A stretch of 64,000 nucleotides of DNA from an uncultured Planctomycetia bacterium (lineage in GTDB: Bacteria; Omnitrophota; Gorgyraeia; Tantalellales; Tantalellaceae). Under the pieces are notes generated by a model. The model had not been told where the DNA came from. It saw only the letters and a list, made by a program, of their open reading frames with translations, and made no database searches. The translations under genes were made by a program, and so were the position numbers. This document shows, one piece after another, positions 8,612 to 62,701 of this stretch. The first letter of the stretch is position 1. Each line of letters opens with the position of its first letter. The DNA is taken from the NCBI GenBank assembly GCA_964409365.1, contig CAYPCX010000009.1:10390-74389 (forward strand), in the 5' to 3' direction.

Positions 8612-8612
8612 T

Positions 8613-11288: not shown

Positions 11289-11557
11289 GTCAGGTCTCAG
11301 GTGTCAGGTTTCAGGTGGCAGGTAACAGAAAACAGAAGACAGAAGGAAGTGTCAGAGTGTCACCGCTCGCTACGCTCGCTAGTGTCATAGTGTCAGTTTC
11401 AGGCGACTTGCGACTTGCGACTGGTGACTGGTGACTTGCGACTGGTTACTGGTTACTGGTTACTGGTTACTGGTTACTTTATCCTTGATACTCGACACTT
11501 TTTCCTTTTTCCTTTATCCTTGTTACTTGTTACTTGCTACTTGACACTTTATATGCT
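11289..11557. repeat. Heptamer-phased tandem-repeat blocks filling the divergent intergenic region
   Basis: Consecutive 7-bp unit arrays: TCAGGTN x5, ACAGAAG x3, AGTGTCA x4, GCGACTT/GTGACTG/GTTACTG x9, TTTATCC/TTTTTCC, TTGTTAC x3. Confidence 0.8.
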
Positions 11558-11582
11558 ATTTTCATTTAGTAAGGCAGGCCTT

Positions 11583-33483: not shown

Positions 33484-34440
33484 ATGGCTATAGTGCTGGA
33501 ATTCGAAAAACCTATAATCGAGCTTGAGAACAAGATCGAGGAACTCAAGAAGTTCACGAACAAGGAGCATATAGACCTCTCCGACGAGATACTTAAGCTC
33601 ACCACCCGGCTCGAAAGGCTCAAAAAGGACGTTTTTGAGAACCTGACCCCCTGGCAGAAGGTCCAGCTTGCGCGCCACCCTGACCGTCCTTATACCCTGG
33701 ACTATATAGGGATGATCATGGGAGATTTCATAGAGATACACGGCGACCGCCATTTCTCCGACGACAAGGCGCTTATAGCGGGACTGGCGCGCATGGACGG
33801 CCAGAAGATCATGATCATGGGGCACCAGAAGGGACGGGAGACAAAGGAGAACCTGGAAAGGAATTTCGGGTGCGCCCACCCGGAAGGATACCGCAAGGCG
33901 ATACGCATAATGAAGCTGGCGGAAAAGTTCGGTATCCCGGTAGTGACCTTTATCGATACCCCCGGGGCTTATCCCGGAGTAGGCGCGGAAGAGCGCGGCC
34001 AGGCCGAGGCCATAGCTTACAATCTGCGTGAGATGGCAGGGCTCAAAGTGCCCATAATAGTGTTCGTGATAGGCGAGGGAGGCTCAGGCGGGGCTCTCGG
34101 GATAGGCCTGGGCGACAGGATATTCGTCCTGGAGAACGGGTATTATTCCGTGATCTCCCCCGAAGGATGCGCCGCTATACTCTGGCGGGAACGCTCGAAG
34201 GCTCCTTCGGCCGCTACCGCCCTGAAACTCACGGCGCAGGAACTTCTTGAATTAGGTATCATAGATGGTATAATACCAGAACCGCTTGGTGGGGCTCACC
34301 GGGATCCCGAAAAGACCGCAGATGGAATAAAGAAGACCATAAGGAAAAGCCTCCGGGAGCTCTCAAAACTTTCAAGCGAAGAACTTGTCGATCAAAGGTA
34401 CGAGAAGTACCGTACCATGGGAGTCTATAAAGAAGGATGA
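33484..34440 (+). CDS. accA: Acetyl-CoA carboxylase carboxyltransferase alpha subunit
   Basis: Full-length AccA ([19 protein letters not shown]). Confidence 0.9.
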
Positions 34441-34856
34441 CGACACCTGCCATGAAAACAAGGATAGCGAACGACAGCCATCTCCTGAAAGAGGTCAGCA
34501 AGGACCTCATAGCAGCGCTCAAAGGCAAAGGCGTTGAAGAGGACATAATATTTGACGTCCATGTGGGTTTCGAGGAGGCGCTGCGCAACGCCATGATCCA
34601 CGGCAACAGGAACGACCCCGAAAAAAAGGTGACCATCGAGACACAGGTCACGGAGGAAGCGGTCATAATCTCCGTGGAGGACGAAGGAGAAGGGTTCGAT
34701 CCCGGGAAGCTCCCGGACCCGACGCTTGACGAGAACCTCCTTAAAGAAGGGGGCAGGGGCGTGTATCTTATCAACCACCTGATGGACGAGGTCGCTTACG
34801 AACGCGGCGGCAGAAAAGTCGTGATGACCAAATATTTTTACAAAAAACACCTATAA
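34437..34856 (+). CDS. RsbW/SpoIIAB-type anti-sigma factor serine kinase (HATPase domain)
   Basis: [11 protein letters not shown]-box and EDEGEGFD G-box. Overlaps accA stop by 4 nt. Confidence 0.75.
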
Positions 34857-34880
34857 GCATATAATTAACGGGGAGGTAAA

Positions 34881-35213
34881 ATGCAGGTTAACATTGAGGA
34901 TAAGAATGGCGTGACTGTTTGCAGCATGGTCGGCGACATCGATATAAATACTTCGCCCGACGTGAAAAAATCCTTTGACCAGATCATAAAGGATAAAAAG
35001 GACAAGGTAGTGATCGATCTTAAGGACGTGGGTTACGTGGACAGTTCCGGGCTTGCCACACTGGTCGAAATACTCAAAAATCTGCGCGCTTACGGGGGAA
35101 AGCTCAAAATAGCGGATCTTTCCGACAAGGTCCGCGGCCTTTTTGAGATAACCAAGCTTGACAAGCTGTTCGACATCGTCGCCGACGAACAGGAAGCCTT
35201 AAGCACTTTCTAA
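34881..35213 (+). CDS. STAS-domain anti-sigma-factor antagonist (SpoIIAA/RsbV/MlaB-like)
   Basis: STAS fold with the conserved DSSGL phosphorylatable-serine motif. Confidence 0.75.
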   Translation: MQVNIEDKNGVTVCSMVGDIDINTSPDVKKSFDQIIKDKKDKVVIDLKDVGYVDSSGLATLVEILKNLRAYGGKLKIADLSDKVRGLFEITKLDKLFDIVADEQEALSTF

Positions 35214-35225
35214 AAAGGATATAAG

Positions 35226-36023
35226 ATGAAAAATACGGTAGAGAATATAGGCAAAACGATCCTCAACCTCGGCCAGCATATAAAGAACATCCTGGCGCTT
35301 TTATATACTACCCTGGAGTGCATATTCACCGGTCCGGTCAAAGGAAAGACGGTCAAACGGGACGGCCTTTTCGAACAGCTGGTATTCGCCGGCGTACAGT
35401 CCGTTGTCATCGTGTTCTTTATATCCCTTTTCACGGGTATCGTAATAGCGATGCAGAGTTCTTACCAGCTTAAGGAGCTGGGGGCCACCATCTACGTGGC
35501 ACCGATGGTCGCCATAGGCATGGCCAGGGAGCTCGGCCCGGTATTCGCGGCCCTGGTCGTGGCGGGAAGAGTGGGGTCGGCGATCACCGCGGAACTCGGC
35601 ACGATGAAGGTCTCCGAGCAGATCGAGGCTATGGAAGTCATGGCTCTCGACCCGGTACGGTTCCTCGTGGCCCCGCGTTTTCTGGCGCTCATCATCATGC
35701 TCCCGTGTCTTACGATAATGGCCGATATAGTAGGCATGTTGGGGGGCTTGATAGTGGGAGTTTTCAGCCTTCATCTTAATGTGTGGAGATACATAGCTTT
35801 TTCGTTGGATTTTCTGGTCTGGAAGGACATCTGGACCGGTCTTTTCAAGAGTTTCGCGTTCGGAGTGATCATATCCATGATAGCCTGTTACGTCGGACTG
35901 GATACCCGGGGCGGGGCCGAAGGGGTCGGGCGGGCTACCACGCTCAGCGTTGTCATCAGTTTTATCCTTATAATCCTTTTTGACTGTATTATAACGGGTA
36001 TATTCTATTTTTCGAACGTATAG
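35226..36023 (+). CDS. mlaE: Mla/Ttg2-type ABC transporter permease
   Basis: MlaE-family permease with 5 TM helices. Confidence 0.85.
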   Translation: MKNTVENIGKTILNLGQHIKNILALLYTTLECIFTGPVKGKTVKRDGLFEQLVFAGVQSVVIVFFISLFTGIVIAMQSSYQLKELGATIYVAPMVAIGMARELGPVFAALVVAGRVGSAITAELGTMKVSEQIEAMEVMALDPVRFLVAPRFLALIIMLPCLTIMADIVGMLGGLIVGVFSLHLNVWRYIAFSLDFLVWKDIWTGLFKSFAFGVIISMIACYVGLDTRGGAEGVGRATTLSVVISFILIILFDCIITGIFYFSNV

Positions 36024-36035
36024 GAAAGAAAAGAC

Positions 36036-36836
36036 ATGGAAGAGAGAGAAGTAGTAATAGAAGTACAGGACCTGGTCAAGAAGTTCGGCGCAAGGACCAT
36101 ACTTAACGGTATAAACCTCAAGATATACAGGGGCGAGACGTTCGTGATCATGGGCGGTTCGGGGTGCGGAAAAAGCACGCTTCTCCGCCACATGATAGGG
36201 AGCCTCAAGCCGAATTCCGGCAGAGTAATGTTGCTGGGAGATGATATAACCGATAAGTACGAGGACCAGCTCGACGATGTCCGCAAGAAGATAGGCATGT
36301 CGTTCCAGTCGTCGGCCCTTTTTGATTCCATGAACGTGGGCGAGAACGTGAGCCTGCCTTTGAGGGAACATACCAAGCTCGATAAGAGCGTAATAGACAT
36401 CGTGGTAAAGATGAAGCTGGAACTGGTGGGCCTCAGGGGATTCGAGGACCTCCTGCCCAGCGAGATCTCGGGCGGCATGAAGAAAAGGGTGGGTCTTGCC
36501 AGGGCTATAGCCATGGACCCGCAGATAATCTTCTACGACGAGCCTACCGCGGGCCTCGACCCGATAGTGGCCGCTGTCATTGACAAGCTCATACTTGATC
36601 TTTCCAATAAACTTTCGATAACTACCGTCGTGGTAACGCATGACATGAAAAGCGTCATGACCATAGCCGACAGGATAGCCATGCTTTACGAGGGCAAGGT
36701 GCTTGAGGTAGGCACTCCCGATGAGATAAAAAATTCGAAAAATGGGATGGTGCAACAGTTCATAAACGGCGACCCGGACGGTCCCATAAAGTTTTTCCAG
36801 CAGAAAGACGATTACCTGGAACATTTAACGGCGTAA
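36036..36836 (+). CDS. mlaF: Mla-type ABC transporter ATP-binding protein
   Basis: Walker A GGSGCGKST, signature LSGGMKKR, Walker B IIFYDEP. Confidence 0.85.
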   Translation: MEEREVVIEVQDLVKKFGARTILNGINLKIYRGETFVIMGGSGCGKSTLLRHMIGSLKPNSGRVMLLGDDITDKYEDQLDDVRKKIGMSFQSSALFDSMNVGENVSLPLREHTKLDKSVIDIVVKMKLELVGLRGFEDLLPSEISGGMKKRVGLARAIAMDPQIIFYDEPTAGLDPIVAAVIDKLILDLSNKLSITTVVVTHDMKSVMTIADRIAMLYEGKVLEVGTPDEIKNSKNGMVQQFINGDPDGPIKFFQQKDDYLEHLTA

Positions 36837-36840
36837 TAGT

Positions 36841-36942
36841 GGTGAGTTATGAGTTTTGAGTTATGAGTCGGCACGAGCGACCACATTCACAACTAATAAC
36901 TAACACCTAATAACTAATAACTAATAACTAATAACTAACTAA
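36841..36942. repeat. Quasi-palindromic heptamer arrays (NTGAGTT x4, spacer, ACTAATA x7) between mlaF and mlaD
   Basis: Left and right arms are approximately reverse complements. 7-bp register throughout. Confidence 0.8.
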
Positions 36943-36953
36943 GGAGTTCCGTT

Positions 36954-37553
36954 ATGAGATTCAGCAACGAAATGAAGGCAGGCATAGTTGTTATCGTGGC
37001 CATAGTCCTGAGTATCTTTTTCTTCCTGAGGACCAGCGATTTCAAGGCCACTAAATACGAGCTGAAGACGTATTTCGTGTACGCCGGCGACCTTAAATCC
37101 GACGCTACCGTGAAGCTCTCCGGCATAGAGGTGGGCCGGGTGAAGAAGATGAAGTTCATTTACAAACCTGAGACCAAAGTGGAGTGTCTCCTGGAGATAG
37201 ACGGCAATGCTAAGGTCCGGACCGATTCCATCGCATATATCGGCACAGCCGGTATCGTGGGCGACGCCTTTGTCGGTATCACGCCGGGCAAGGCCGAGGA
37301 GTTCATGAAAAAGGGCGGCACCCTGGCCAGCGAAGACCCGATCCAGATGCGTCTCTTGTGGAAGAAAGCCGACGAGATCGCCACCAACCTGGACAGCATC
37401 ATCGCGGACGTCAAAGACGTCGTCGCGGAGAACAAAGAGAACATGAGCAACATAATAGTCAACCTCGAGGACACCACCGAGAACTTCAAGGAATTCAGCG
37501 AAGACGTGAAGAAAAACCCGTGGAAACTTCTCTTCAAGGGAGAAGAGAAGTAG
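36954..37553 (+). CDS. mlaD: MCE-domain protein MlaD
   Basis: N-terminal TM plus MCE domain. AAGGAG RBS. Confidence 0.8.
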   Translation: MRFSNEMKAGIVVIVAIVLSIFFFLRTSDFKATKYELKTYFVYAGDLKSDATVKLSGIEVGRVKKMKFIYKPETKVECLLEIDGNAKVRTDSIAYIGTAGIVGDAFVGITPGKAEEFMKKGGTLASEDPIQMRLLWKKADEIATNLDSIIADVKDVVAENKENMSNIIVNLEDTTENFKEFSEDVKKNPWKLLFKGEEK

Positions 37554-37585
37554 TTCAGGTGTCAGGTCTCAGGAGAGCCGGGACG

Positions 37586-38389
37586 ATGAGGAAAGTTTTA
37601 GTATTTGCCGGTTGTTTGTTTTTTTTGTTTAGCACAGTTAGTTCGGTTTTCGGCGTGGGTGAGACGGTACTGGTCATATCCTACGCGGGAGACGTAAAAA
37701 TAATACCCGCCGGCGCCGCAAAGGCGATACCCTGCCAGCCCGGAATGGTACTGAGGGAAGGTACCAGGATAATCACGGGGGAAGAATCCTACATAGAGAT
37801 CGTTTTCGACCGGTCCAGGCAAAACCTGGTGAAGATAAAGGCTAATACCGAGGTTGTTATCAAACTGGATGATGCCGGCAGGATCGATCTGATCGACGGT
37901 GAGGTCTACACGCTCCTCAGGGATATCAAAGAAGGACAGACCTTCCGCGTGCGCACGCCCGGGGCCGTTTGCGGTGCCCGCGGGACCGGCTGGTACACCG
38001 GGGTCAAGGGCAAGATCACTGATATTGTCTCGTTTCAGGACAACGTTTTTGTCTACGGTGTAAATAAAGACGGTTCCGTGAAGGAAGAGATCTTCTGGAT
38101 AAAAGAGGGGTATGAAAGAAAAGTGAAGAAGTTCGGACGCCCCGGTGATATGATCAGGGTCTCCGAAGAACGGCTGGCCAGGATGAGACGAGAGGTCGGA
38201 CTGGGCAGCGGCAAGACCCTCAGGGACGTGAACAACATAGAAAAAAGCACCAATGTCCGGGAATCACAGATAAGCAGCATCATCGAAAAAAGGAACGAGG
38301 AACGTCTGGACAATCTGCGGAGCAAGCGGGATAAATCCGATACCAGAGGAGGCCGCGTCGGCGGCAGGAAGCTGGTAAAAGGCCCTTAA
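37586..38389 (+). CDS. Secreted FecR-domain protein (paralog 1)
   Basis: Signal peptide. GDVKIIP...GMVLREGTRIITGEESYIEIVFDRS...NTEVVI pattern and V(R/K)TPxAxCGxRGTxW motif, compared with the FecR consensus VxTPxAxAGVRGTxF. Confidence 0.6.
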   Translation: MRKVLVFAGCLFFLFSTVSSVFGVGETVLVISYAGDVKIIPAGAAKAIPCQPGMVLREGTRIITGEESYIEIVFDRSRQNLVKIKANTEVVIKLDDAGRIDLIDGEVYTLLRDIKEGQTFRVRTPGAVCGARGTGWYTGVKGKITDIVSFQDNVFVYGVNKDGSVKEEIFWIKEGYERKVKKFGRPGDMIRVSEERLARMRREVGLGSGKTLRDVNNIEKSTNVRESQISSIIEKRNEERLDNLRSKRDKSDTRGGRVGGRKLVKGP

Positions 38390-38478
38390 AGCCCTACCTT
38401 GTTTTTAAACCAATCCTGTTATATACTTAAACTGCTCGAAATATGCGAAAAGGTCTGTCTAAACAAGGAGAGCATATT

Positions 38479-39333
38479 ATGAGAAAATTTTTATTATTAC
38501 TGCTCATATTTTGTCTTGCTGTATCACCGGTCTTGTATGCCGCCCAGGAGACCGTGAGTGTCGTCTCTTTCGAGGGTGATGTAAAGGTCCTGGCGCCGGG
38601 TGAAAAGGAAGCGGTCTCTCCCAAAAAGGACATGGTCCTCGAAAAAGGCACGAAGATAACCACGGGTAAAGGCGGCTATCTTGAGATGACTTTTGATGAG
38701 TCGGGGGATAACATCCTGAAAGTGGAAGAGGAGACCGAGGTTGTCATCAAGATAGACGGGGTCGACAAAGTGGAGCTTGTCAACGGCGAGCTCTTTGCCC
38801 TGATACAGAACCTCGGCGAGGGTGAGGAGTTTCGCGTGAAGACACCGTGCGCGACCTGCGGCGCTCGCGGTACCGCCTGGAAGACCATGACCGACGGCCA
38901 GACGACGGACGTCTCGGTCGTTGACGATAAGGTGTTTGTCCGCGGATTTAACAAGGACGGCACTGTATCCGATAAGGTGTTCTGGGTGAACAAGGGATAC
39001 CGGAGGTCGATCAAGAAATTCCGTGCCCCCGGCGAAATGAAAAAGATCCCCACCGCCAGGTTCGCCAGGATGAAGAGGGAAATGAAGCCGCTCTCTTCCC
39101 GGTTGAACAAGGTGATCGACAAAAGGATCTCGGCGAGCGGATTAGATAAGCCCAGGATCGAAAGAGTGGTCGACCGGCAGGAGGCCATGGATAAAAGGAC
39201 CCGGACCATAGATATCCGTGAAGACCTGCGCGAGAAATCCCTGGACCAGCAAAGAGAAAAGAAAGACGAACCGATCCTCAGGAAGAGAAGGAGGAGACCG
39301 CCGCCGCCGAGTGGTGGTACCGGAAGTCCATAA
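38479..39333 (+). CDS. Secreted FecR-domain protein (paralog 2) with Lys/Arg/Pro-rich tail
   Basis: Same architecture and VKTPCATCGARGTAW motif. AAGGAG RBS. Confidence 0.6.
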   Translation: MRKFLLLLLIFCLAVSPVLYAAQETVSVVSFEGDVKVLAPGEKEAVSPKKDMVLEKGTKITTGKGGYLEMTFDESGDNILKVEEETEVVIKIDGVDKVELVNGELFALIQNLGEGEEFRVKTPCATCGARGTAWKTMTDGQTTDVSVVDDKVFVRGFNKDGTVSDKVFWVNKGYRRSIKKFRAPGEMKKIPTARFARMKREMKPLSSRLNKVIDKRISASGLDKPRIERVVDRQEAMDKRTRTIDIREDLREKSLDQQREKKDEPILRKRRRRPPPPSGGTGSP

Positions 39334-39351
39334 ACGAAGGGGACAGGATAG

Positions 39352-40404
39352 TTGAATAAAAGGGCAATAATATCGTTGATAACGGCGCTGGTATTTTCTG
39401 CCGGTCTTTTTTCTTTCTGTCCTTATGTTTCTGCCGTAGACGAAGTGATTACCGATCTTTTTCCGGGCGCGGCCCCGCCCCCGACCGTCAAAGAAAGGAA
39501 GATTGAAGAGGAAGAAGCCGCTCCGACCTACCGTGACCGCACGCAAATAAGCGCTTTTATAGATATCCAGCAGGGCTATGATAACAACGTGGACCTCGAC
39601 CCACGCCGCCACAAGGATGGGTTCCTTCAGACAACCGCTAACGTGGAGGTCACATACGACCAGACCGATACGTTCAAGTTCGTGGCCGGTTCTGACCTTT
39701 TTAATATAACGTACTATAAATACAATATCGATAACATCCTGGACATAACTCCTTACGTAGGGTTCGACTGGGAGATCCTTCCCGGATTTGTTTCAAAGAA
39801 CCGCGTCACTTATGATTATTTCTCGTTCCCCAATGAGAAAGAAGACACTTTTTCAGGCCTAGTCCTTTCGACCTACTTGCGTCATTTTGTCACGGCGGAT
39901 TTTTACCAGGAGGCGGGTTTCGAGTACCTGAGGCGGTGGTATCCCGACCAGAAAGTGACGATGACCAACCTGGAGATAGGCAATGCGGAGCGCGAGGACA
40001 CGCGTTACAGGTACAAGTACAATCTTGGATACTTCACGAAGATGTTCTTCATCCGTCTGGAGAACGGGTTCATTTTTAACGATTCTACCGAGGTCTACCA
40101 GGACTATTATGATTACTGGAACTACAGGGTGAAGCCGGCAGTGATGGTGTTTTTTACCGATAAGTTGTATGCCGACGTTAGTCTTGTTTACAGGCACTTT
40201 ATCTATAAAGACCGTCGCAGTACCGAAGACATCAATGACGTTACCCGCAACAACCTTTTCATATTCAACTCAACGATCTATTTCGATATAACTAAGAACA
40301 TGACCCTGGAGTTCACTTATACCTATACCGAGAATGTTTCCAATGATCCTTTTGAAAAATATTCCGGCAGCATGATCAGCGGAGGCGTTTACTACAGTTT
40401 CTGA
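39352..40404 (+). CDS. Putative outer-membrane beta-barrel protein
   Basis: Signal peptide, alternating aromatic/hydrophilic beta-strand pattern, C-terminal VYYSF. TTG start per the ORF track. Confidence 0.5.
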   Translation: MNKRAIISLITALVFSAGLFSFCPYVSAVDEVITDLFPGAAPPPTVKERKIEEEEAAPTYRDRTQISAFIDIQQGYDNNVDLDPRRHKDGFLQTTANVEVTYDQTDTFKFVAGSDLFNITYYKYNIDNILDITPYVGFDWEILPGFVSKNRVTYDYFSFPNEKEDTFSGLVLSTYLRHFVTADFYQEAGFEYLRRWYPDQKVTMTNLEIGNAEREDTRYRYKYNLGYFTKMFFIRLENGFIFNDSTEVYQDYYDYWNYRVKPAVMVFFTDKLYADVSLVYRHFIYKDRRSTEDINDVTRNNLFIFNSTIYFDITKNMTLEFTYTYTENVSNDPFEKYSGSMISGGVYYSF

Positions 40405-42317
40405 TGAAGAAATTCGACCGGACCAAACTTGCTTATATCTGTCTTGCCGTTTTCATGGCGGGGCTTTTCCTCTTTTTTTCCTGGGCCAGGGTGTTCGACG
40501 AGTTCGAGTACAGCACGCTGGACTTCAGGTACAGGTTAAGGCCTCCCCAGAAGGTCGACTCGGATATCGTGATAGTGGAGATCGGCGACGATTCCATCGA
40601 AAAACTGGGCAAATGGCCTTTCCCCCGTAATTACCACGCGCTTGTCGTGAATGCCCTCAAATCATCGAACGTAAAGACGATCGTTTTTGATGTTTTCTTC
40701 AGCGAGGAAAAAGAAGGGGACGAGGAGTTCGCCGAGGCCATAAAAGACGCGGGCAATGTGTACCTGCCTTATGTTTTCGAGCTTAACCGCGACCCTCCCG
40801 ACAGGACGCGCGTGTACGCCACCGGTTACGCGGCGGAACTGTTAGATATTTTTAAAAAGGTCGCCAGAGGCATAGGGTTCATAAATGTGGAACCTGACAT
40901 TGACGGGAAGATACGCAGGGTGCCTCCCTTTATCGAGTACAAGAACGTCCTGTATCCGCATATTACGGTGCTTGTGGCGCTGAACAATTTGGGTTACAGG
41001 TTCGACGAGGTTAAGATAATACCCGGCAAAAGGATGATGATCGGCGAAGACCTGGTCATACCCCTGGACAGCGACTCTTCCATGCTGGTGGATTATCCGG
41101 CGGTCTGGGGCAAGGCATTCCGCCATTATTCATACGTGGATATCATCCAGTCGTATCTCGCGGACGTAACGGGACAAAAACCTATACTGGACCTGAACGA
41201 GCTCGGCGGGACCATATGTTTCATAGGTCTTACCGCGACGGCGGCTCCCGACGCCCATCCGTCGCCGATGGAGCCTCTATACCCGGGTATTGGGGTACAT
41301 ACGAGCATTTACAACAGTATAATGAGCAATATCTTTCTCAGAAGGCTTAACAGGTGGTGGAACCTCCTGATACTTATTGTGCTCTGGTTCCTTACCGGAT
41401 ACCTTACCTCAAAGAGCCGGAAGCGTTTCGCTATTCTCTCCATGATCCTTTTAACGGTCCTCTTTATCATGGTGGCCATTTTTATGTTCTGGCCGCTCGG
41501 AATATGGATCGACCTTTTTTATCCGATCATATCGTGTTTGGGAGTCTACATAATTTTTACGTTCAAAAAATACATAACGGAGACACAGAAAAGGGAGATC
41601 ATCGAGAAAGAGCTGAACATCGCCAGGGAGATACAGGAGAGTTTTCTGCCCAAAGAGATCCCGCAGGTCGGGGGGCTCGAGGTGAGCGTAAAGATGCTGA
41701 CAGCCAGGCAGGTTGGCGGGGACCTTTATGATATAGAGCAGCTTGACGACAACAAGCTCGGGATCATGATCGGGGACGTCTCCGGTAAGGGGGTTCCGGC
41801 CGCCCTTTACATGTCAAGGGTGGTCAGTGTTTTCAAGACTTACATGAGGGAAGGAACGGCTTCGGAAGTCGTTAAGAACATTAATAACCGTTTAGTCGCG
41901 GAAGCGGCCAGTAACCTTTTCGTGACACTTGCCTATATGGTGTTCGATACGGAGAAAAAGATAGCCGATTTCGCGATGGGCGGGCACCTGCCGACGATTG
42001 TCATGGAACCGGACGGCAATATAGAGCTTCTTGACGTTTCGGAGGGGATGCCGCTGGGGCTTATAGAAGGGGATTTCTCGCCGGGAAGAAAAGAGTATAA
42101 ACCGGGAAGCATTTTCGTGTTCTATACTGACGGCGTGACGGAGGCTATGAACATAAAGGAAGAGATGTTCGGCCAGGATCGCCTGGTGAAGCTGGTAAAA
42201 GGCCTCAGGGGCCGGTCTACACAGGAGATAGTGGATTCCATACACAAGGTCATCGGGGCATTCGAGGGAAAAGGCAATCAGCATGACGATATCACGGTGA
42301 TGGCGATAAAGACGTAG
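40404..42317 (+). CDS. CHASE2 extracytoplasmic sensor domain - multi-TM - PP2C (SpoIIE-type) serine phosphatase
   Basis: N-terminal TM plus periplasmic CHASE2-like domain, 3-4 TM helices, C-terminal PP2C (IGDVSGKGVPAALYM, FYTDGVTE). Start overlaps the OMP stop (ATGA). Confidence 0.75.
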   Translation: MKKFDRTKLAYICLAVFMAGLFLFFSWARVFDEFEYSTLDFRYRLRPPQKVDSDIVIVEIGDDSIEKLGKWPFPRNYHALVVNALKSSNVKTIVFDVFFSEEKEGDEEFAEAIKDAGNVYLPYVFELNRDPPDRTRVYATGYAAELLDIFKKVARGIGFINVEPDIDGKIRRVPPFIEYKNVLYPHITVLVALNNLGYRFDEVKIIPGKRMMIGEDLVIPLDSDSSMLVDYPAVWGKAFRHYSYVDIIQSYLADVTGQKPILDLNELGGTICFIGLTATAAPDAHPSPMEPLYPGIGVHTSIYNSIMSNIFLRRLNRWWNLLILIVLWFLTGYLTSKSRKRFAILSMILLTVLFIMVAIFMFWPLGIWIDLFYPIISCLGVYIIFTFKKYITETQKREIIEKELNIAREIQESFLPKEIPQVGGLEVSVKMLTARQVGGDLYDIEQLDDNKLGIMIGDVSGKGVPAALYMSRVVSVFKTYMREGTASEVVKNINNRLVAEAASNLFVTLAYMVFDTEKKIADFAMGGHLPTIVMEPDGNIELLDVSEGMPLGLIEGDFSPGRKEYKPGSIFVFYTDGVTEAMNIKEEMFGQDRLVKLVKGLRGRSTQEIVDSIHKVIGAFEGKGNQHDDITVMAIKT

Positions 42318-42356
42318 TATCGAGTATCGAGTATCGAGTATGGAGTATCGAGTATT
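42317..42356. repeat. Heptamer array GTATCGA x5 immediately after the CHASE2-PP2C stop
   Basis: GTATCGAGTATCGAGTATCGAGTATGGAGTATCGAGTAT. Same AGTATCG unit as at 26660. Confidence 0.7.
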
Positions 42357-44084: not shown

Positions 44085-44171
44085 GCCGGAGTGGTGAAAC
44101 TGGCAGACGCGCCGGACTCAAAATCCGGTGGGGGCAACCCCATGTGGGTTCGATTCCCACCTCCGGCACCA
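44085..44171 (+). tRNA. tRNA-Leu (anticodon CAA), class II with long variable arm, CCA encoded
   Basis: Acceptor stem GCCGGAG/CTCCGGC. Anticodon loop CT-CAA-AA. Long extra arm. TPsiC GGTTCGATTCC. Confidence 0.85.
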
Positions 44172-55644: not shown

Positions 55645-56376
55645 ATGAAGAAGGCATTTTTATTTGTTACGGTGATCGCGTTAGTAACAGGTTTTGCCGT
55701 TATTTCCAACGCATCGGTCGACAGTATCTATGAGGCCGCGGTGATCAATATGAAGGGCGATGTCAAAGTAGACCCGAACGCTGATGGCAGCTGGTTTACC
55801 CCCTGGATAGGTATGAAGCTCAAAAAGGGCGCCCTTTTGAAGGCGGGTCCGGATTCCTGGGCCGAGATCGTTTTTGACGTGGACGGCTTGAATATATTAC
55901 GCATCAAGGAAAATACCCAGATAACCATAGATAGATCGAGCGTAAAGATGCCTGAAGGTTCCGTCCTTGCCAAATTCGACAATCTTACACCGGGGTCTTC
56001 TTTTGTGGTAAGGACACCCAACGCGGCCTGCGGGATAAGGGGGTCGGGTATGGGTGTCACGGTTGTTAAAGGCAAAACTATTGTCGAAGCGTTCGAAGAT
56101 AAGGCTTACTTAACGACTTATGATGCGAACGGTAATGTAGTAACAACGGAATTCATAGTTCCTGAGGAATGGAAAACAACAGTAAGGTCTGATGGGAAGC
56201 CCGAACAACCTGTGGCGCTGACCCCTGAAGAAAAAGACGTATGGGAAGTCTGGGTGGATGCTCTTGAAAAAGGTGTGGGGGAAGCCCCGGAAGGTTATGA
56301 ACCCGAACCTGACAGCAAAGACCTCGAAGATATTAAAACAGAAGAAAAGAAAAAAGACGTAAGTCCGTGTTCATAA
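55645..56376 (+). CDS. Secreted FecR-domain protein (paralog 3)
   Basis: Signal peptide. GDVKVDP...ALLKAGPDSWAEIVFDVDG...NTQITI pattern and VRTPNAACGIRGSGM motif. Confidence 0.55.
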   Translation: MKKAFLFVTVIALVTGFAVISNASVDSIYEAAVINMKGDVKVDPNADGSWFTPWIGMKLKKGALLKAGPDSWAEIVFDVDGLNILRIKENTQITIDRSSVKMPEGSVLAKFDNLTPGSSFVVRTPNAACGIRGSGMGVTVVKGKTIVEAFEDKAYLTTYDANGNVVTTEFIVPEEWKTTVRSDGKPEQPVALTPEEKDVWEVWVDALEKGVGEAPEGYEPEPDSKDLEDIKTEEKKKDVSPCS

Positions 56377-56402
56377 ATATACGATAAAAAGGGAGAAGGG
56401 AT

Positions 56403-57569
56403 ATGAGGTTTAGACTTTTCGTAATTTTTATATTGGCTGTCTTCGTCGCGGGCATCTTTTTCGCTGAACCAGCCCTTGCCTGGGAAAAAGGACATATGAA
56501 GGTGGTTCCTGCGGCGAAATATGAACAGCGCTGGGACAGCAATATCTTTTATGATACCGACGATCCGAAAAGTGATCACATGTCGATCATCACTCCCAGT
56601 ATACTCGGAGAATTCGGTTTCGGGGCGGCAGGCAAACACAAAGCAAGAGTTGCTTATAACGTCGAGTGTGGCATTTTTTATGAACATACTGACCAGAACT
56701 ACGCTAATCATGATGTTTTCGGCGAACTGTTCCTGGATGTCAACGAGAATTATAATATCAGGGCGAACAATACGTTCCTTTTCACTTCTGACCGCGCCGG
56801 TACGGAGTTTACCCAGAGGATATTGAGAAAAGAAGATACATTTAATGCCGTTCTTGAGATGGAATTCAATAAGCTTGCTTTTGATGTTGGGTACAGCTTC
56901 TATATCATAGATTACCTGAGCGATACGCTGGATCAGGTGGACCGTTATGAGAATTCGGGATGGGTCACCGGTTATGTGCAAGTAGCCCCGAAGACCAGGG
57001 TATTGGCGGAATACAAATACAAGAATATCAAATACACCGATGACAGTCCCCGTGATGCTAATGCTCATTATGCGCTTTTGGGTGTTACTGGTCAGATCGC
57101 TCCCAAAGTAACAGGTACTGCCAAGGTAGGTTTTGAATATAAAAAGTATGACAATTCATCACCTACCGATTTCACCAATGCCGTGGCAATGATTGATCTG
57201 GACTGGACCCCGACAGAAAGAACCAATGTGCATTTCGGGTACGAAAGGGAAGCTTTTGAGTCGGTTTTCAGGGATAACAATTACTATGCGGGTGACCATT
57301 TCAAGTTAAATTTCAAGCATAAGCTGCCGAGGAATTTTGCCGTGATAGTAAATGGTATGTATTTCCTGAATCAGTATCCCAAAGAGCGAGAGGGCGACAA
57401 CGACAAGAGGACCGATAATATCTGGGCGGTGGGTCCCAGACTTGAATACTACTGGAAGGAATATCTGGTAGCTGGCGTTGGCTACAGGTTCAAACAAAGG
57501 GATTCGAACGTGGCCGACAGAAGCTACGATGACCATATCGTTTACGGTGACGTGAAATTAGCTTTTTAA
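56403..57569 (+). CDS. Putative outer-membrane beta-barrel protein (BBP2/OmpL-like, EPS-locus type)
   Basis: Signal peptide, beta-strand alternation, C-terminal KLAF. Confidence 0.5.
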   Translation: MRFRLFVIFILAVFVAGIFFAEPALAWEKGHMKVVPAAKYEQRWDSNIFYDTDDPKSDHMSIITPSILGEFGFGAAGKHKARVAYNVECGIFYEHTDQNYANHDVFGELFLDVNENYNIRANNTFLFTSDRAGTEFTQRILRKEDTFNAVLEMEFNKLAFDVGYSFYIIDYLSDTLDQVDRYENSGWVTGYVQVAPKTRVLAEYKYKNIKYTDDSPRDANAHYALLGVTGQIAPKVTGTAKVGFEYKKYDNSSPTDFTNAVAMIDLDWTPTERTNVHFGYEREAFESVFRDNNYYAGDHFKLNFKHKLPRNFAVIVNGMYFLNQYPKEREGDNDKRTDNIWAVGPRLEYYWKEYLVAGVGYRFKQRDSNVADRSYDDHIVYGDVKLAF

Positions 57570-57696: not shown

Positions 57697-58305
57697 ATGA
57701 ATTTTATTAAAAGATCGTTTTTCGTACCCGTTGTTTTTCTAACCCTTACACTGGCTGTTACTTGCGTAAATGCGGAAAAAATACAGGAAGAAAATAACAA
57801 CCTTGCCGGATATACGATCGGCCCTGAGAATGTATTACAGATAGATGTTTATTACGGCAGAGACAGGAATCTTTCCCGCAAGGTACGCGTTTCATCAAAA
57901 GGTTTTATTACATTTCCCCTGCTGGGGGAAGTGGAGGTCAACGGTCTTACTGTGGCCGAACTTGAAAATAAGCTCACGTATTTACTGGCAAAAGATTATC
58001 TGGTAAATCCCCAGGTTTCGGTATTTATTGATGAATACAGTACGGTTTCGGTATTAGGTCAAGTCAAAAGCCCCGGAACTTATCCTATTAAAGGGAAACT
58101 TTCAGTAGTTGAGCTTATTTCCATGGCAGGTGGTTTTACGAAAATCGCGGCTCCGAATTGGGTAAAAATAATAAGGACACATTCCGATGGCACAAAAGTC
58201 ACTATTCCGGTAAGAGTGCACGATATCATAAACAAAGGGAAAGAAGAAGATGATATCCAGCTTCAGGCCGGAGATATAGTAACGGTGGCAGAAAGCATAT
58301 TTTAA
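57697..58305 (+). CDS. wza: Polysaccharide export periplasmic protein (Wza/PST-like, Poly_export + SLBB)
   Basis: Signal peptide. YTIGPENVLQIDVY...NPQVSV...LGQVKSPGTY signature. Confidence 0.8.
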   Translation: MNFIKRSFFVPVVFLTLTLAVTCVNAEKIQEENNNLAGYTIGPENVLQIDVYYGRDRNLSRKVRVSSKGFITFPLLGEVEVNGLTVAELENKLTYLLAKDYLVNPQVSVFIDEYSTVSVLGQVKSPGTYPIKGKLSVVELISMAGGFTKIAAPNWVKIIRTHSDGTKVTIPVRVHDIINKGKEEDDIQLQAGDIVTVAESIF

Positions 58306-58319
58306 AAAAGAAAAGTGAT

Positions 58320-60224
58320 ATGGATAACAAAAATCCCTTTTTAGAGCAAGAGATCGATATCAGGGAATATTTTCGTATTCTCTATGAGAGAAAGTGGCTG
58401 ATTATCTCCCTTACCATTGTATTGTGCACATTCTCTTTGATAAGATCTTCCATGTTGAGGCCGGTTTATAGAGCAAGGGCCCAGGTTCTCATAGAGCGGG
58501 AAACACCTCGTATACTTAATATAGAAGAAGTTTCACCGACCGAGTTCAAGGACAGGGACTATTATGAGACGCAGTATAAGATACTTAAAAGTCGGTCTCT
58601 TGCCGAGAGGGTCAATAAGACCCTGGGGGGATATCAGCCCTGGGATAATTGGGGAGGTCGCAGGAAAGCCAAAGAAAATGAACAAAAAATAAGCGACGAA
58701 AGTCGAGCTAGGGCGCTTTTAGGCAGAGTGGAAGTAAAGCCGGTACATAAGACGCAACTGGTGGAGATAAACGTCGAGGACGTAAACCCGAAGATGGCCG
58801 CAAAGATAGCCAATCTTTGGGCCGAAAATTACATCTCCTATGTGCTGGATACAAAATATGAAGCTACGCAATACGCTTCCGGATGGCTTCAGGGGAAAAT
58901 AAAAGGGGCCAAGGCCAATCTGGAAAAATCTGAACTTGATCTTCAAGAATACCGAAAACAAAACAAGATAGTTATCGATTCGGATGAGAGGACCAGCATG
59001 CTGCAACAGCTTTTTCAAAAAAAAGCTGAACTGGAAATAACGCTCTCTGAAAACCTTGAATATTACAAGGAAAAACATCCCGAGATTATAGGCATCAGGT
59101 CCGAGCTTGATTCCGTAGAAAGCAAAATAGAAGCTGAAAAAGAAAAAGAGCTTTATACAAAAGATAAGGAGATACAGTACCAGATACTCAAGAGGGATGT
59201 GAAGACCAACAGGGAAGTATATGAGGCGCTCCTAAGTCGTATTCGGGAAACTGAAGTAACGGGTGGATTGAAGGCCACGAATATCAGGATAATCGATAAG
59301 GCCACTGTTCCGAGAGGGCCTGTACGTCCCAATAAGGTCAAGGATCTTATAATCGCATTTTTGGTGGGAATAATAGGAGGCGGAGGTCTGGCATTTTTGT
59401 TCAACAGCCTGGACCAGAGCATAAAGACGCCCGAGGATATAAAAAATTATATCAGATTACCCGCCCTGGCATCGATCGCTTTACCCAAGGAAGATGATAG
59501 GGAAGCAAAACCTGAGTTCATCACTTCACAAAAACCCTATTCCACGATATCTGAAGCATACAGAAGTTTGCGGACAAGCATAATGTTTACAGCGGTCGAA
59601 CATAAGCGAAAAACGCTTATTTTAACAAGTTCCGGCCCCCAGGAAGGGAAGACCACGATCGCCATAAATCTTGCGATAGTTATGGCTCAGGCCGGGGAGA
59701 AGACTATCCTTCTTGATTGTGACCTGCGGCAGCCGCGTGTTGAAAAATCCTTCGATCTGAATATAGGGAACGGATTAACCGAAGTACTTGCTGGGAAAGA
59801 AGAAATCGATTCTGTCATCCATAAAACGCATATAGAGAACCTTGATCTAATAACATGTGGTTCGATCCCTCCCAACCCTTCTGAACTTCTGGGTTCAAGG
59901 AGAATGGATGAATTTTTACAAAAAGTTGAAGAGAGATATGACCGGATAATCATAGATTCACCGCCGGTTCTTGCCGTAACTGATGCGGTGGTCCTATCCG
60001 GCAAGGTCGATGGGACTATTGTCGTAGTGAAAGCCAATGAAACCAACCGGAATGCGATGTTAAAAACAAAAGAGATCCTTGAATCCGTCCAGTCATCAAA
60101 TCTTATTGGCTCTATTCTCAACATGGTCGAAACCGGTAAAACCGGCGGCTATTATTATTACCACTATTATGGCAAGTATGGTAAATACGGCCAGAAACAT
60201 AAGAAGCAAGAGCAGACCACGTAA
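58320..60224 (+). CDS. wzc: Polysaccharide co-polymerase / BY-kinase (Wzc-like chain-length determinant + tyrosine autokinase)
   Basis: N-terminal Wzz domain with TM. Long coiled coil. C-terminal Walker A SSGPQEGKTT, DxD, and the Tyr cluster GGYYYYHYYGKYGKYG. Confidence 0.85.
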   Translation: MDNKNPFLEQEIDIREYFRILYERKWLIISLTIVLCTFSLIRSSMLRPVYRARAQVLIERETPRILNIEEVSPTEFKDRDYYETQYKILKSRSLAERVNKTLGGYQPWDNWGGRRKAKENEQKISDESRARALLGRVEVKPVHKTQLVEINVEDVNPKMAAKIANLWAENYISYVLDTKYEATQYASGWLQGKIKGAKANLEKSELDLQEYRKQNKIVIDSDERTSMLQQLFQKKAELEITLSENLEYYKEKHPEIIGIRSELDSVESKIEAEKEKELYTKDKEIQYQILKRDVKTNREVYEALLSRIRETEVTGGLKATNIRIIDKATVPRGPVRPNKVKDLIIAFLVGIIGGGGLAFLFNSLDQSIKTPEDIKNYIRLPALASIALPKEDDREAKPEFITSQKPYSTISEAYRSLRTSIMFTAVEHKRKTLILTSSGPQEGKTTIAINLAIVMAQAGEKTILLDCDLRQPRVEKSFDLNIGNGLTEVLAGKEEIDSVIHKTHIENLDLITCGSIPPNPSELLGSRRMDEFLQKVEERYDRIIIDSPPVLAVTDAVVLSGKVDGTIVVVKANETNRNAMLKTKEILESVQSSNLIGSILNMVETGKTGGYYYYHYYGKYGKYGQKHKKQEQTT

Positions 60225-60248
60225 ATTCGAAATGTCATAAGATCGGAC

Positions 60249-61721
60249 ATGAAATCCAGTCGCGTCCAAATTGAAGATTCCCTACTTATAGGATTATTAG
60301 CCTTTGCACCGTTAGCTTTAGGAAGTGTTCATGTCTGGGCATATTGTATATTAGCGACATTGTCTCTTATCATTTTTGACCTGCATTTTCTGAATAATAT
60401 CGATAAGTTAAAAAGAGTTCTAACCTTGCCGATATCTGTTGGAGCTGTAGCTTTTATCGGACTAACCTGCCTTTACGTTATACCTTTTCCGGAATATCTC
60501 ATTAAGGTTGTTACACCGGGAGCTTACACGCTTAGACAGACATATATGCTTGCACCTGTTTCCTGGCAAACGATCAGTATATATGCATATCCTACTATAA
60601 CAAGTATAATTAAACTTATTTCCTATGTAATGGTTTTTCTGGTCGTTGTTTCAAAAATCAGTTTGACAAAAAATGAAAATCAGGCAGCAGACAGTTCCCA
60701 CCCGGAATTCGTGCCACATACATTTATATTGCTCGGTGCGTTAACAGGTGTTCTTACGATTATTTTTCATAGTTTTTCTGATTTCAATCTTCGCATTCCG
60801 TCTAACGCGTTATATTTCACGGTATTCTCAGGCATTATTGCCGGGATCGGCTTAAAAAAGGACAAGAGCGTTCTTAATCTACCGTTTATCAAAAAATTAG
60901 TAAATTCAGTCATCATAATAGGTTTTGTCGTAGCAGTATTCGGTATCATACAAAGGTTCAGCTGGAACGGTAAGATATATTGGCTGATAAGAAAAAAAGG
61001 CGGAATATTCGGCCCGTTTATAAATTATGATCACTTTGCCGGATACATGGGCATGTGCGCAAGTTTAGCAGTGGCTTATTTTATGGCGTGCATAAGATAT
61101 TCGTCATTTTTTCAGATTAAAAAAGTAAAAGAAAAGCTGCTATGGTTTTCATCAAAGGAAGCCAATATGGCACTGATCTATTTGTTTTTATCGACAGTTA
61201 TGATAACAGCGCTGTTTTTAACCACATCGAGAGGGGGAATATTGAGCTTCAGCGCGGCTATGCTGGTGTTTTTCTTCGCGTGTATTGTAAGAACAAAGAG
61301 GAAAAGACGAAGCCGCGTGGTTTTTTCCATTCTGTTGATAGGACTGTTATTCTGTGTTCTGGTCATATGGATAGGGCCGGAACCGACGGTGGAACGTTTT
61401 AGGATGTTAAACAGAATGACAAAAGTCGTAATAAAGGAAAAACCCATTTTAAGCGAGATTAGGCCCCTAATATGGAAAGATACTTTGAAAGTAATAAAAG
61501 ATTATCCCGTTACGGGTACCGGGATGGGAACATTTTCATATATATTTCCCAAATACAGGTCATTCAGGGCTGATGATAAAAATTTGAAGTATGCTCATAG
61601 TGATTATTTGCAACTTGTATCAGAAACGGGTATCTTCGGGCTGGTATTTGCCATAGGTTTTCTTCTCTGGTATTTAAAGATGTTCGGAAGATGTCTGCGC
61701 GGGTTAAGGGAACAAGAATGA
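60249..61721 (+). CDS. O-antigen ligase/Wzy-like polymerase family membrane protein
   Basis: 10+ TM helices with the Wzy_C-type central loop region. Confidence 0.6.
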   Translation: MKSSRVQIEDSLLIGLLAFAPLALGSVHVWAYCILATLSLIIFDLHFLNNIDKLKRVLTLPISVGAVAFIGLTCLYVIPFPEYLIKVVTPGAYTLRQTYMLAPVSWQTISIYAYPTITSIIKLISYVMVFLVVVSKISLTKNENQAADSSHPEFVPHTFILLGALTGVLTIIFHSFSDFNLRIPSNALYFTVFSGIIAGIGLKKDKSVLNLPFIKKLVNSVIIIGFVVAVFGIIQRFSWNGKIYWLIRKKGGIFGPFINYDHFAGYMGMCASLAVAYFMACIRYSSFFQIKKVKEKLLWFSSKEANMALIYLFLSTVMITALFLTTSRGGILSFSAAMLVFFFACIVRTKRKRRSRVVFSILLIGLLFCVLVIWIGPEPTVERFRMLNRMTKVVIKEKPILSEIRPLIWKDTLKVIKDYPVTGTGMGTFSYIFPKYRSFRADDKNLKYAHSDYLQLVSETGIFGLVFAIGFLLWYLKMFGRCLRGLREQE

Positions 61722-61727
61722 ACGGAA

Positions 61728-62231
61728 ATGGTGAACGTGAGTAAGACGATCAGATCGATAGTAGTTGTGTTCTCGATTCTTTTTTTTATCCGTGTTGCAA
61801 CTATTTTTACCGCGGATCGTTTGTCCAGCATAAGTATGCTTGCTGAGAAGGAGAAGATAAACCGGGAAATCGCGTTATCTCTGGTTAATATTTCTATAAA
61901 GATCGATTCTGCCAATGCGGATATTTATATGCGAAAATATGATATTTTGCAAGATATCATAAGAAACGATGGAAGAGATAAGAGGTATGTCCTTTTAGAG
62001 CGTCAGTTGCACACCCTTAGACGTTGTATACAGCTTTGTCCGTCCTGGCCGGCATACCATATGTATTATGCGGTTACCGTAAGAAGAATGAGCCCACAGC
62101 CGAATATTCAGACCCGAAAGCTTATTTTATCGGAGATGGAAAAGGGCACGAGGCTTAAGCCTTATAGTAAACGTTATAGTAAAATTTACAAAAGATACCT
62201 TCAAAAATCCTCCTCCGAAATCGAACAGTGA
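61728..62231 (+). CDS. Hypothetical protein, one N-terminal TM
   Basis: ORF with GTG start immediately after the ligase gene. No recognisable domain. Confidence 0.35.
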   Translation: MVNVSKTIRSIVVVFSILFFIRVATIFTADRLSSISMLAEKEKINREIALSLVNISIKIDSANADIYMRKYDILQDIIRNDGRDKRYVLLERQLHTLRRCIQLCPSWPAYHMYYAVTVRRMSPQPNIQTRKLILSEMEKGTRLKPYSKRYSKIYKRYLQKSSSEIEQ

Positions 62232-62343
62232 TCTTGGTCTTGACATTCCAGGCTTATATTAGTACAATGTTCATTCATTGAACATATATTAAGTTCTTAT
62301 CTTATCTCTACTTAAAACCTGTTATCATTCGCATCTTAAGATC

Positions 62344-62682
62344 ATGAAAAATGTTGAAGATACTATAAAACTTCTTAAATATTTACAGGAAAATCCAAAG
62401 GCGACTCAACGCGAGCTAATGCGAGAACTTGGAGTAAGCCTGGGGAAAGTCAATTACCTGATAAATTTTCTGGCCGATAGGGGATTGATCAAATTAAAAA
62501 GATTTCGTAAATCCAATAATAAAGCCGCGTACCTGTACAAGTTGACCCCAAAAGATATTTACGAAGAGATTTCTGTCGCCAGGAAACATATTAAGAATAA
62601 GTTAGCGGAATATGAAGAATTAAAGGCACAGATCGAGATCTTTGCGAAAAGTATCGGGGAAAAAGACATCAATAGAAGTTGA
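62344..62682 (+). CDS. Small winged-helix (MarR-like) transcriptional regulator, EPS-locus associated
   Basis: About 110 aa. Helix-turn-helix QRELMRELGVSLGKVNYLIN. Resembles MarR-family EPS-associated regulators. Confidence 0.55.
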   Translation: MKNVEDTIKLLKYLQENPKATQRELMRELGVSLGKVNYLINFLADRGLIKLKRFRKSNNKAAYLYKLTPKDIYEEISVARKHIKNKLAEYEELKAQIEIFAKSIGEKDINRS

Positions 62683-62701
62683 TATTTTGATCAGGAGAAA
62701 C

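Follow-up and report, generated by a model that had tools for sequence, protein, structure and literature searches.

Does a partner-switching kinase and phosphatase act on a lipid transporter, rather than on a sigma factor, when their genes are wrapped around those of the transporter? This question is raised by a locus in a 64,000-nucleotide stretch of DNA from an uncultured bacterium of the Omnitrophota (assembly GCA_964409365.1, contig CAYPCX010000009.1, positions 10,390 to 74,389 of the forward strand; the whole stretch is referred to here as the window). Genes for an RsbW-type serine kinase, a STAS protein, the Mla proteins MlaE, MlaF and MlaD, two FecR-domain proteins, an outer-membrane barrel and a CHASE2–PP2C phosphatase follow one another there, and an initial annotation had proposed that the lipid-transport status of the envelope is wired to a phospho-STAS switch, which may control Mla itself rather than, or as well as, a sigma factor. 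We found that in Omnitrophota this triad is almost always linked to mlaEFD as one block, far beyond chance, and that the block is operon-like and conserved phylum-wide. The linkage suggests that phosphorylation may turn the transporter on and off.

In the window, the block begins with the kinase gene (34437..34856, + strand as for all genes of the block; 139 aa), followed by the gene for a single-domain STAS protein of 110 aa that carries a DSSG motif with Ser55 and is a candidate MlaB-like subunit (34881..35213). The genes for the MlaE permease (35226..36023), the MlaF ABC ATPase (36036..36836) and MlaD (36954..37553) come next. Two paralogous secreted FecR-domain proteins (37586..38389 and 38479..39333) and a probable BBP2_2-related outer-membrane β-barrel (39376..40404), all optional accessories, are encoded between mlaD and the last gene, which specifies a 637-aa phosphatase with a CHASE2 sensor, three transmembrane segments and a PP2C/SpoIIE domain (40404..42317). 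The nine genes, with their order, strand and tight spacing, are as initially annotated, except that the starts of the FecR genes and the barrel gene (37586, 38479 and 39376) now follow gene calls on the identical contig; the second FecR gene has an alternative ATG at 38443. Both of the overlaps reported at the outset are present: the stop codon of accA overlaps the ATG of the kinase gene (ATGA), and the phosphatase ATG has one base in common with the barrel stop (TGATG). The remaining gaps are 12–117 nt, with 12 nt from the STAS stop to the start of MlaE. Domain searches with Pfam and NCBIfam supported every assignment (CHASE2, FecR, STAS, HATPase_c_2, SpoIIE and MlaE/F/D), with E-values from 1e-7 to 1e-79. 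The shared strand of the genes is uninformative by itself, because the window is entirely + strand from 15 to 64 kb.

We then compared the block in 87 Omnitrophota loci, 80 of them metagenomic loci anchored on the STAS gene and seven from genomes or assemblies; the set holds 78 distinct STAS sequences that are 56–75% identical to that of the window, and each count takes in only the loci whose contig reaches far enough. The kinase gene lies immediately 5′ of the STAS gene in 72 of 72 loci, one apparent exception being a 4-nt overlap, and mlaE lies immediately 3′ of it in 72 of 72. In 34 of 35 loci, a homologue of the window's CHASE2–PP2C phosphatase closes the block, after MlaD or after MlaD, FecR and barrel. 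Median gaps are 15 nt between kinase and STAS, 21 nt between STAS and MlaE, 17 nt between MlaE and MlaF, and 33 nt between MlaF and MlaD. The arrangement is therefore held in common by related genomes rather than scattered among them, and the only non-signalling genes that are invariably present in it are mlaEFD.

The surroundings of the block are more changeable. accA, which encodes the acetyl-CoA carboxylase carboxyltransferase alpha subunit (33484..34440, + strand, in the window; Pfam ACCA) and is a flank rather than a core part, lies 5′ of the kinase gene in 43 of 46 loci. Elsewhere its place is taken by a SYLF-like gene (L166, where a histidine kinase, a GGDEF regulator, UppP and DedA are also encoded upstream), an NMO/EngA gene (L143), an SNase gene (L171), an omptin gene (L172) or a hydrolase gene (L168). 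On the 3′ side, gpmI follows the phosphatase gene in the window and its closer clade, whereas a GAF–HD gene (L003), a PilZ glycosyltransferase gene (L171) or others are found in further loci; in L171 the block, with FecR and barrel, thus stands between SNase and PilZ glycosyltransferase genes. The order of the block is kept despite at least five different flanking contexts.

By sequence, the kinase, the STAS protein and the PP2C phosphatase appear to form a working partner-switching triad. The kinase matches HATPase_c_2 (PF13581) at 105 bits; its top NCBIfam matches are RsbW and SpoIIAB, both under their equivalog cut-offs, and its nearest solved structures are RsbW (6m36) and SpoIIAB. The N-box (E47..N51..HGN57) and the G1 (D82xGxGF) and G2 (GRGV) motifs show at least 98% conservation among 63 distinct orthologues. 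The STAS protein scores 80.5 bits against PF01740 and 82 bits against TIGR00377 (ant_ant_sig; cut-off 53), and its nearest solved structures are TM1442, RsbV and SpoIIAA. Its D54-S55-S56-G57-L-A-T motif is invariant among 79 distinct sequences, and Ser55 is aligned with the phospho-serine column of TM1442 and RsbV.

The phosphatase matches CHASE2 (PF05226, 178 bits, residues 21–333) and SpoIIE (PF07228, 165 bits), and the PPM metal-binding motifs GGDxYD, GDVSGKG, DGVTE and DDIT are invariant among 14 orthologues. A hydrophobic segment at residues 9–27 precedes CHASE2 and about three more, at ∼319–387, follow it before the PP2C domain. These segments fit a topology in which CHASE2 is periplasmic and PP2C cytoplasmic, the architecture of CHASE2 sensors generally: an N-terminal transmembrane segment, an extracytoplasmic CHASE2 domain, further transmembrane segments and a cytoplasmic output. 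Its best relatives (48–72% identity) all combine CHASE2 with SpoIIE and come from Candidatus Omnitrophota, including Ca. Makaraimicrobium and Ca. Tantalella, within the Planctomycetes–Verrucomicrobia–Chlamydiae (PVC) group. Profile searches of the window gave no other STAS protein or kinase. A second membrane PP2C protein (11415–12941, +), with about seven hydrophobic segments and then a SpoIIE domain, is encoded some distance away; it is 27% identical to the CHASE2–PP2C protein in the catalytic part, and could provide another input into the STAS protein of the block.

As for the transporter, MlaE, MlaF and an MCE-domain MlaD are encoded together. MlaE scores 265 bits against PF02405 and 248 bits against TIGR00056, over its cut-off. 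MlaF, which has an SGGM signature and a C-terminal extension, matches ABC_tran/PRK11831 at 257 bits; its nearest solved relatives are MlaF of Pseudomonas aeruginosa, Acinetobacter baumannii and Escherichia coli, with an alignment that reaches residue 262 of 266, and the main family retains the counterparts of Y261 and L265 of the E. coli protein. MlaD (199 aa; 198–221 aa in relatives) is of a short type, with an N-terminal transmembrane segment at residues 7–25, one MCE domain (PF02470, 53 bits) and a helical tail, a form reportedly near-restricted to Proteobacteria (PMC10665443). MlaC (PF05494) and MlaA (PF04333) gave no Pfam match among window open reading frames of at least 150 aa, and both are unlisted for two Omnitrophica genomes, including Omnitrophus magneticus, in a published supplementary table (Grasekamp et al. 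2023, PMC10665443). A 507-aa open frame antisense to mlaE and mlaF (35301–36824, −) is taken as a shadow frame, because the sense-strand genes match their families strongly.

A search for STAS relatives among 1.84 billion representative sequences revealed a sister family of at least 26 clusters, where a single fusion protein of ∼248 aa combines kinase and STAS, and we read seven of its genomic contexts. The fusion gene is immediately 5′ of MlaE–MlaF(–MlaD) in L168, L173 and L174, and one gene intervenes in L169; in the fusion loci the MlaE start overlaps the STAS stop. Behind MlaD, L168 encodes a PP2C protein in which a cNMP-binding domain replaces CHASE2 (7921–9045), and L169 a cNMP-binding patatin-like phospholipase (4142–6232); cyclic-nucleotide inputs here occupy the position of the CHASE2–PP2C protein of the main family. 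The recurrence, from different parts, of a kinase/STAS unit before mlaEFD and a PP2C protein behind them argues for a functional tie between the triad and Mla; the block has been kept through changes of its flanks, of the kinase–STAS fusion and of the phosphatase's sensor.

In classical partner-switching systems, a sigma factor gene lies beside the kinase gene. We therefore asked what the corresponding output might be in this block. Tblastn searches, for which FliA and RpoS of E. coli and an ECF (extracytoplasmic function) sigma factor were the queries, found no sigma-70-family gene near the module in the window and 0.91 Mb of related loci, ∼97 loci altogether, the sole exception being an unrelated ECF sigma gene that lies in L167 at a distance of 9 kb from the module. 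The Pfam annotations, which covered the window and five loci, likewise gave no sigma factor gene. A sigma factor held by the kinase was not seen at the loci searched; a more distant target would be possible. For E. coli, in turn, MlaB is required for MlaF to join MlaED, Thr52 of MlaB is central in the MlaF–MlaB interface and the T52E change weakens binding; phosphoregulation of MlaB is a stated open question, its kinase not being known (Kolich et al. 2020, PMC7367683). Both MAFFT and HHalign align Ser55 of the STAS protein with Thr52.

We consider the chances about even that the module is of partner-switching type and dedicated to MlaFED rather than to a sigma factor; this same estimate takes in a variant in which the kinase, and not the STAS protein, contacts the transporter, so that STAS merely relieves the kinase. 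Somewhat less probable, and put forward tentatively, is a specific form in which the kinase and phosphatase gate Mla by phosphorylating an MlaB-like STAS protein at the Thr52-equivalent residue, with envelope sensing by CHASE2 and, in some lineages, by FecR and barrel proteins. Unphosphorylated STAS, as the MlaB-like cytoplasmic subunit, would bind the helical subdomain of MlaF and so keep the ATPase assembled and active. Phosphorylation of Ser55 by the RsbW-type kinase would detach STAS and reduce transport, and the CHASE2–PP2C phosphatase, upon reading a periplasmic envelope cue, would dephosphorylate STAS in the cytoplasm and turn transport on again. Secreted FecR-domain proteins and the outer-membrane barrel may assist the phosphatase in sensing in those lineages that have them.

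The partner switch itself would then be between kinase and MlaF, one helical face of STAS binding either of them. In the SpoIIAA–SpoIIAB complex, the kinase is bound by the serine-bearing helical face of the STAS protein. In MlaFB, the same helical face binds MlaF (PMC7367683), and it is because one face serves SpoIIAB in SpoIIAA and MlaF in MlaB that we propose a switch between these two partners. The phosphorylation, the contact between STAS and MlaF, the direction of the effect and the sensed signal are all put forward from gene neighbourhood and residue alignment. On that same basis, the initial suggestion that the triad is tied to Mla and possibly acts on it is, given the synteny and the lack of a nearby sigma gene, the best-supported reading of the locus.

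A number of observations weigh against this reading. Most concern the STAS protein, which by sequence is a full-length, canonical member of the RsbV/SpoIIAA type and not a minimal MlaB. It scores 34 bits against the MlaB model NF033618 (cut-off 90), HHalign gives 88% over 46 columns for MlaB versus 98% over 107 columns for the RsbV/SpoIIAA type, and no solved MlaB structure was matched at E < 0.01. In E. coli, MlaB has the form of a truncated, minimal STAS domain (Kolich et al. 2020, PMC7367683), and its gene is the last of mlaFEDCB, whereas the STAS gene here is 5′ of mlaE; the initial remark that STAS sits where MlaB normally sits therefore does not hold. We checked ten multi-domain proteins among the 150 best STAS relatives in the same 1.84 billion representatives. 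Their fusion partners are the kinase, a PP2C domain, a WecG glycosyltransferase or additional STAS domains, with no fusion to MlaE or MlaF among the ten. Rate covariation across 28 taxa, controlled with accA, showed that MlaE, MlaF and MlaD co-vary and gave 0.08 for STAS–MlaF; as even the sure pair STAS–kinase reached only 0.13, the test is low in power.

Other such points concern the distribution of the genes. L163 is without the PP2C gene, and in L143/L150, where no PP2C was seen, a K-channel-like gene (Ion_trans_2) comes after MlaD. Outside the fusion family, the linked loci all belong to one phylum, and nothing similar was found beside ∼70 listed PP2C homologues of other phyla, which are in ordinary triads without mla genes. 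One clade of the fusion family (L167, L170 and the P0273 contig) has CHASE2–PP2C and the kinase–STAS fusion beside a K-channel-like gene, and no mla genes within 10 kb, implying that the triad either can function apart from Mla or has a different partner. We also tried MlaF's C-terminal extension as a marker of an MlaB partner and rejected it, since Veillonella has a shorter one without MlaB, and since L168 and L169 have STAS with the extension degenerate or missing; in the fusion family generally, the extension is variable or lost.

The K-channel-like protein (246–265 aa) consists of a TPR-like N-terminal half and a pore with the TVGYGD motif, and it may be a further partner of the module. 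Its gene adjoins the kinase–STAS fusion in all five fusion contexts with enough sequence (L167–L170 among them). Neither the window nor any of the 85 other main-family loci gave a homologue of Ion_trans_2. In the clade without adjacent mla genes, the STAS domain has diverged more from that of the window (74–76 versus 96–112 bits) and the kinase domain has not. A STAS motif, KL[DNE]KLF versus K[IV]HKLI, correctly predicted adjacency to mla in two blind look-ups. We did not accept the motif as independent evidence for the tie to Mla, because the non-Mla group is one clade and represents one evolutionary event; the pattern would fit a constraint imposed on STAS by Mla. Among the best STAS relatives is also a protein (P0170) that joins a WecG/TagA-family glycosyltransferase to two STAS domains, a natural fusion with an envelope-polymer enzyme that agrees with a direct action of STAS proteins on the machinery of the envelope.

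The FecR and barrel genes behave differently from the rest of the block. The two FecR proteins (29.9 and 38.2 bits against PF04773; cut-off 24) are 36% identical to each other (E 1e-63), and both have hydrophobic, signal-peptide-like N-termini, after which only a periplasmic FecR domain follows; the first is weakly similar to Leptospira Lsa33/LipL45. The barrel protein (342–350 aa) has no Pfam match of its own in the window. It has a signal-peptide-like hydrophobic N-terminus and a C-terminus ending in YYSF that is kept in 13 orthologues; seven of seven orthologues match the C-terminal part of BBP2_2 (PF10082, a family of putative β-barrel porins), one of them above the gathering score (L171, 29.6 versus 23.7), and HHalign gave the family a probability of 3.7% against the window's true BBP2_2 protein. 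We think 'outer-membrane barrel' a fair call for a protein with these features.

Among 34 loci, the interval between MlaD and the phosphatase is empty in 21, holds FecR and barrel in seven, two FecR genes and a barrel in five, and a FecR remnant in one; the barrel gene is invariably accompanied by at least one FecR gene. As an insert these genes are optional, and the phosphatase is never displaced by them from the block. The initial annotation counted them as components of the module; they are present in the window's block and are not core, since 21 of 34 complete blocks are without them. In some lineages they probably carry the sensing as far as the outer membrane, and secreted FecR-domain proteins are found beside CHASE2 sensors with other outputs in Burkholderia (PMC5192318) and Campylobacterota (PMC9239204). 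In the window, a third FecR paralogue (27–31% identical to the two of the block) precedes a genuine BBP2_2 barrel of 100 bits (55645–57569), directly 5′ of genes for Wza-like, Wzz/GNVR tyrosine-kinase-like and Wzy_C proteins and for glycosyltransferases (57697–63898). FecR with a BBP2_2 barrel looks like a reusable two-gene cassette.

How do other explanations of the block compare with dedication to MlaFED? The module may carry out ordinary partner switching with a distant output, a sigma factor or another regulator, the CHASE2 phosphatase reporting envelope stress and mla being merely co-transcribed or a target that is never contacted. The kinship of STAS and kinase to RsbV/SpoIIAA and RsbW/SpoIIAB is what such a system would have, as are the related clade whose triad is without adjacent mla genes and the ordinary triads of many phyla. 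In Chlamydia, of the same PVC group, RsbU has a periplasmic sensor and the rsb genes are scattered, and the relatives checked gave no positive sign of contact in the form of a STAS–MlaF fusion or of rate covariation. We nevertheless regard this explanation as rather unlikely. A sigma-70-family gene is near none of the ∼97 loci, apart from the unrelated one noted above, whereas classical systems have it beside the kinase gene; the triad is split by mlaEFD, and a split kept through changed flanks, sensor and fusion is hard to account for by co-regulation alone; the STAS stop is also close to the MlaE start in the window, and the two overlap in the fusion loci. A broader possibility is that the module regulates membrane transport proteins generally, with the K-channel protein or another as its primary or ancestral partner and Mla as a secondary neighbour. 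STAS domains are known transporter regulators (SLC26/SulP), and the channel gene's regular place beside the fusion, as well as after MlaD in L143/L150, would suit this; we judge it clearly improbable, with linkage to mla far commoner and the channel gene not found in the window or the 85 other main-family loci.

Still less probable, in our view very much so, is that the block is merely inherited gene order, housekeeping synteny in a little-rearranged phylum with no functional tie. The frequent accA upstream, gpmI downstream in the closer clade and the single strand throughout are of the kind expected from that, but both flanks have changed in at least five lineages while the order of the six-gene block stayed intact, gain or loss of FecR and barrel never parts the phosphatase from the block, and the gaps are operon-like. 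A last alternative concerns the FecR and barrel part only, which might consist not of aids to CHASE2 sensing but of parts of a lipid route that replace MlaC and MlaA beside a short MlaD. MlaD is indeed short, MlaC and MlaA were not found in the window and are not listed for Omnitrophus magneticus, and the genes are placed between mlaD and the phosphatase gene. Their absence from most complete blocks, the paralogous FecR/BBP2_2 pair beside Wza/Wzc/Wzy genes in the window and the recurrence of FecR-domain proteins by CHASE2 sensors of other outputs make this improbable to us. Dedication of the module to MlaFED remains our preferred reading.

We also scanned the window for transcription signals. 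Promoter-like matches were ∼2 standard deviations and terminator-like matches ∼3 standard deviations more numerous than in shuffled sequences, and the terminator scan gave no convincing intergenic terminator inside the block; Rfam had no match there. A sigma-70-like promoter match (TTTACA-17-TATAAT, 11 of 12 positions; a consensus match only) lies at 34837–34865 (+) in the 3′ end of the kinase gene and stops 16 nt 5′ of the STAS ATG. From its position, it could allow transcription of STAS and mla without the kinase. A tRNA gene (Rfam, 55 bits) at 44085–44168 (+), between gpmI and a sat/cysC fusion gene, sets the limit of any transcript that passes through the block and on through gpmI. Elsewhere in the window, an open reading frame of 1818 aa (1709–7165, +) has Pfam matches only to HTH_3, HTH_19 and HTH_31, near residues 215–361, and the guanine plus cytosine content falls to 0.39–0.43 across 56–64 kb.

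E. coli MlaFEDB (Thong 2016, PMC5016091; Kolich 2020, PMC7367683) resembles the block in that MlaE, an MlaF with SGGM and C-terminal extension, a single-MCE MlaD and a small STAS protein are encoded together, and in the Ser/Thr at the phospho-site column of STAS (S55 here, T52 there). It differs in its minimal STAS protein, encoded at the 3′ end of mlaFEDCB, as opposed to an RsbV-type protein of full length whose gene lies 5′ of mlaE, and in that the block has a kinase and a phosphatase, which no described Mla system has, and no MlaC or MlaA seen nearby. MlaA, MlaB and MlaC are mostly proteobacterial, yet the supplementary table of Grasekamp et al. (2023; PMC10665443) gives 'MlaB in cluster' for Ca. 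Omnitrophus magneticus and Omnitrophica SM23_29, with none in the neighbouring candidate phyla shown, and makes no remark on a kinase or phosphatase. The literature that we searched gave no mention of RsbW or RsbV together with mla genes. The initial view that this composition is undescribed consequently holds for the kinase and phosphatase and not for the STAS gene, which had been listed.

The Bacillus systems RsbU–RsbV–RsbW and SpoIIE–SpoIIAA–SpoIIAB draw on the same three families, with catalytic and acceptor motifs intact here, and differ in that the present triad has no adjacent sigma gene, is separated by a transporter operon and has a phosphatase with periplasmic CHASE2 input. Chlamydia RsbU/RsbV1/RsbV2/RsbW, of the PVC group, shares a membrane PP2C protein with a periplasmic sensor and an output other than a classical alternative sigma factor; its sensor domain is not CHASE2, and it has no Mla link. 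In function, the nearest counterparts are partner-switching-like modules in which an envelope enzyme is the direct target of the STAS protein, among them Anabaena HenR/STAS and SiaABCD. For Anabaena HenR/STAS, whose target is a glycosyltransferase (PMC13555669), for P. aeruginosa SiaABCD (PMC8457831) and for Vibrio SypE/SypA (PMC10120452), it has been proposed that an envelope-related effector is under direct control of the phosphorylation state of a STAS-type protein, and a STAS protein is the module output in the Anabaena glycosyltransferase system and in SiaC–SiaD; no Mla or MCE proteins occur in these systems, whereas an ABC transporter of lipids is the effector presumed for the block. The Burkholderia BiofilmReg operon (PMC5192318) and the Campylobacterota CHASE2 adenylate cyclase cluster (PMC9239204) have a secreted FecR-domain protein beside a CHASE2 sensor, with a histidine kinase or adenylate cyclase as output where PP2C is found here, and here the FecR gene is always accompanied by a BBP2_2-type barrel. 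FecIRA-type signalling does not describe the block, which has no cytoplasmic anti-sigma domain and no sigma gene, and whose barrel is BBP2_2-like and not TonB-dependent.

The set of six proteins from one phylum-wide block makes phosphoregulation of MlaB testable in vitro. If dedication to MlaFED is not borne out, the block still presents a clear partner-switching module without a nearby sigma factor, whose target is worth finding. If it is, an ABC transporter would be added to the outputs of partner switching, the first as a switched partner, and the question of phosphoregulation of MlaB-type proteins would have a direct answer. Envelope sensing via CHASE2 would then be linked to lipid trafficking, and this could help explain how the envelope is controlled in the hardly cultured Omnitrophota.

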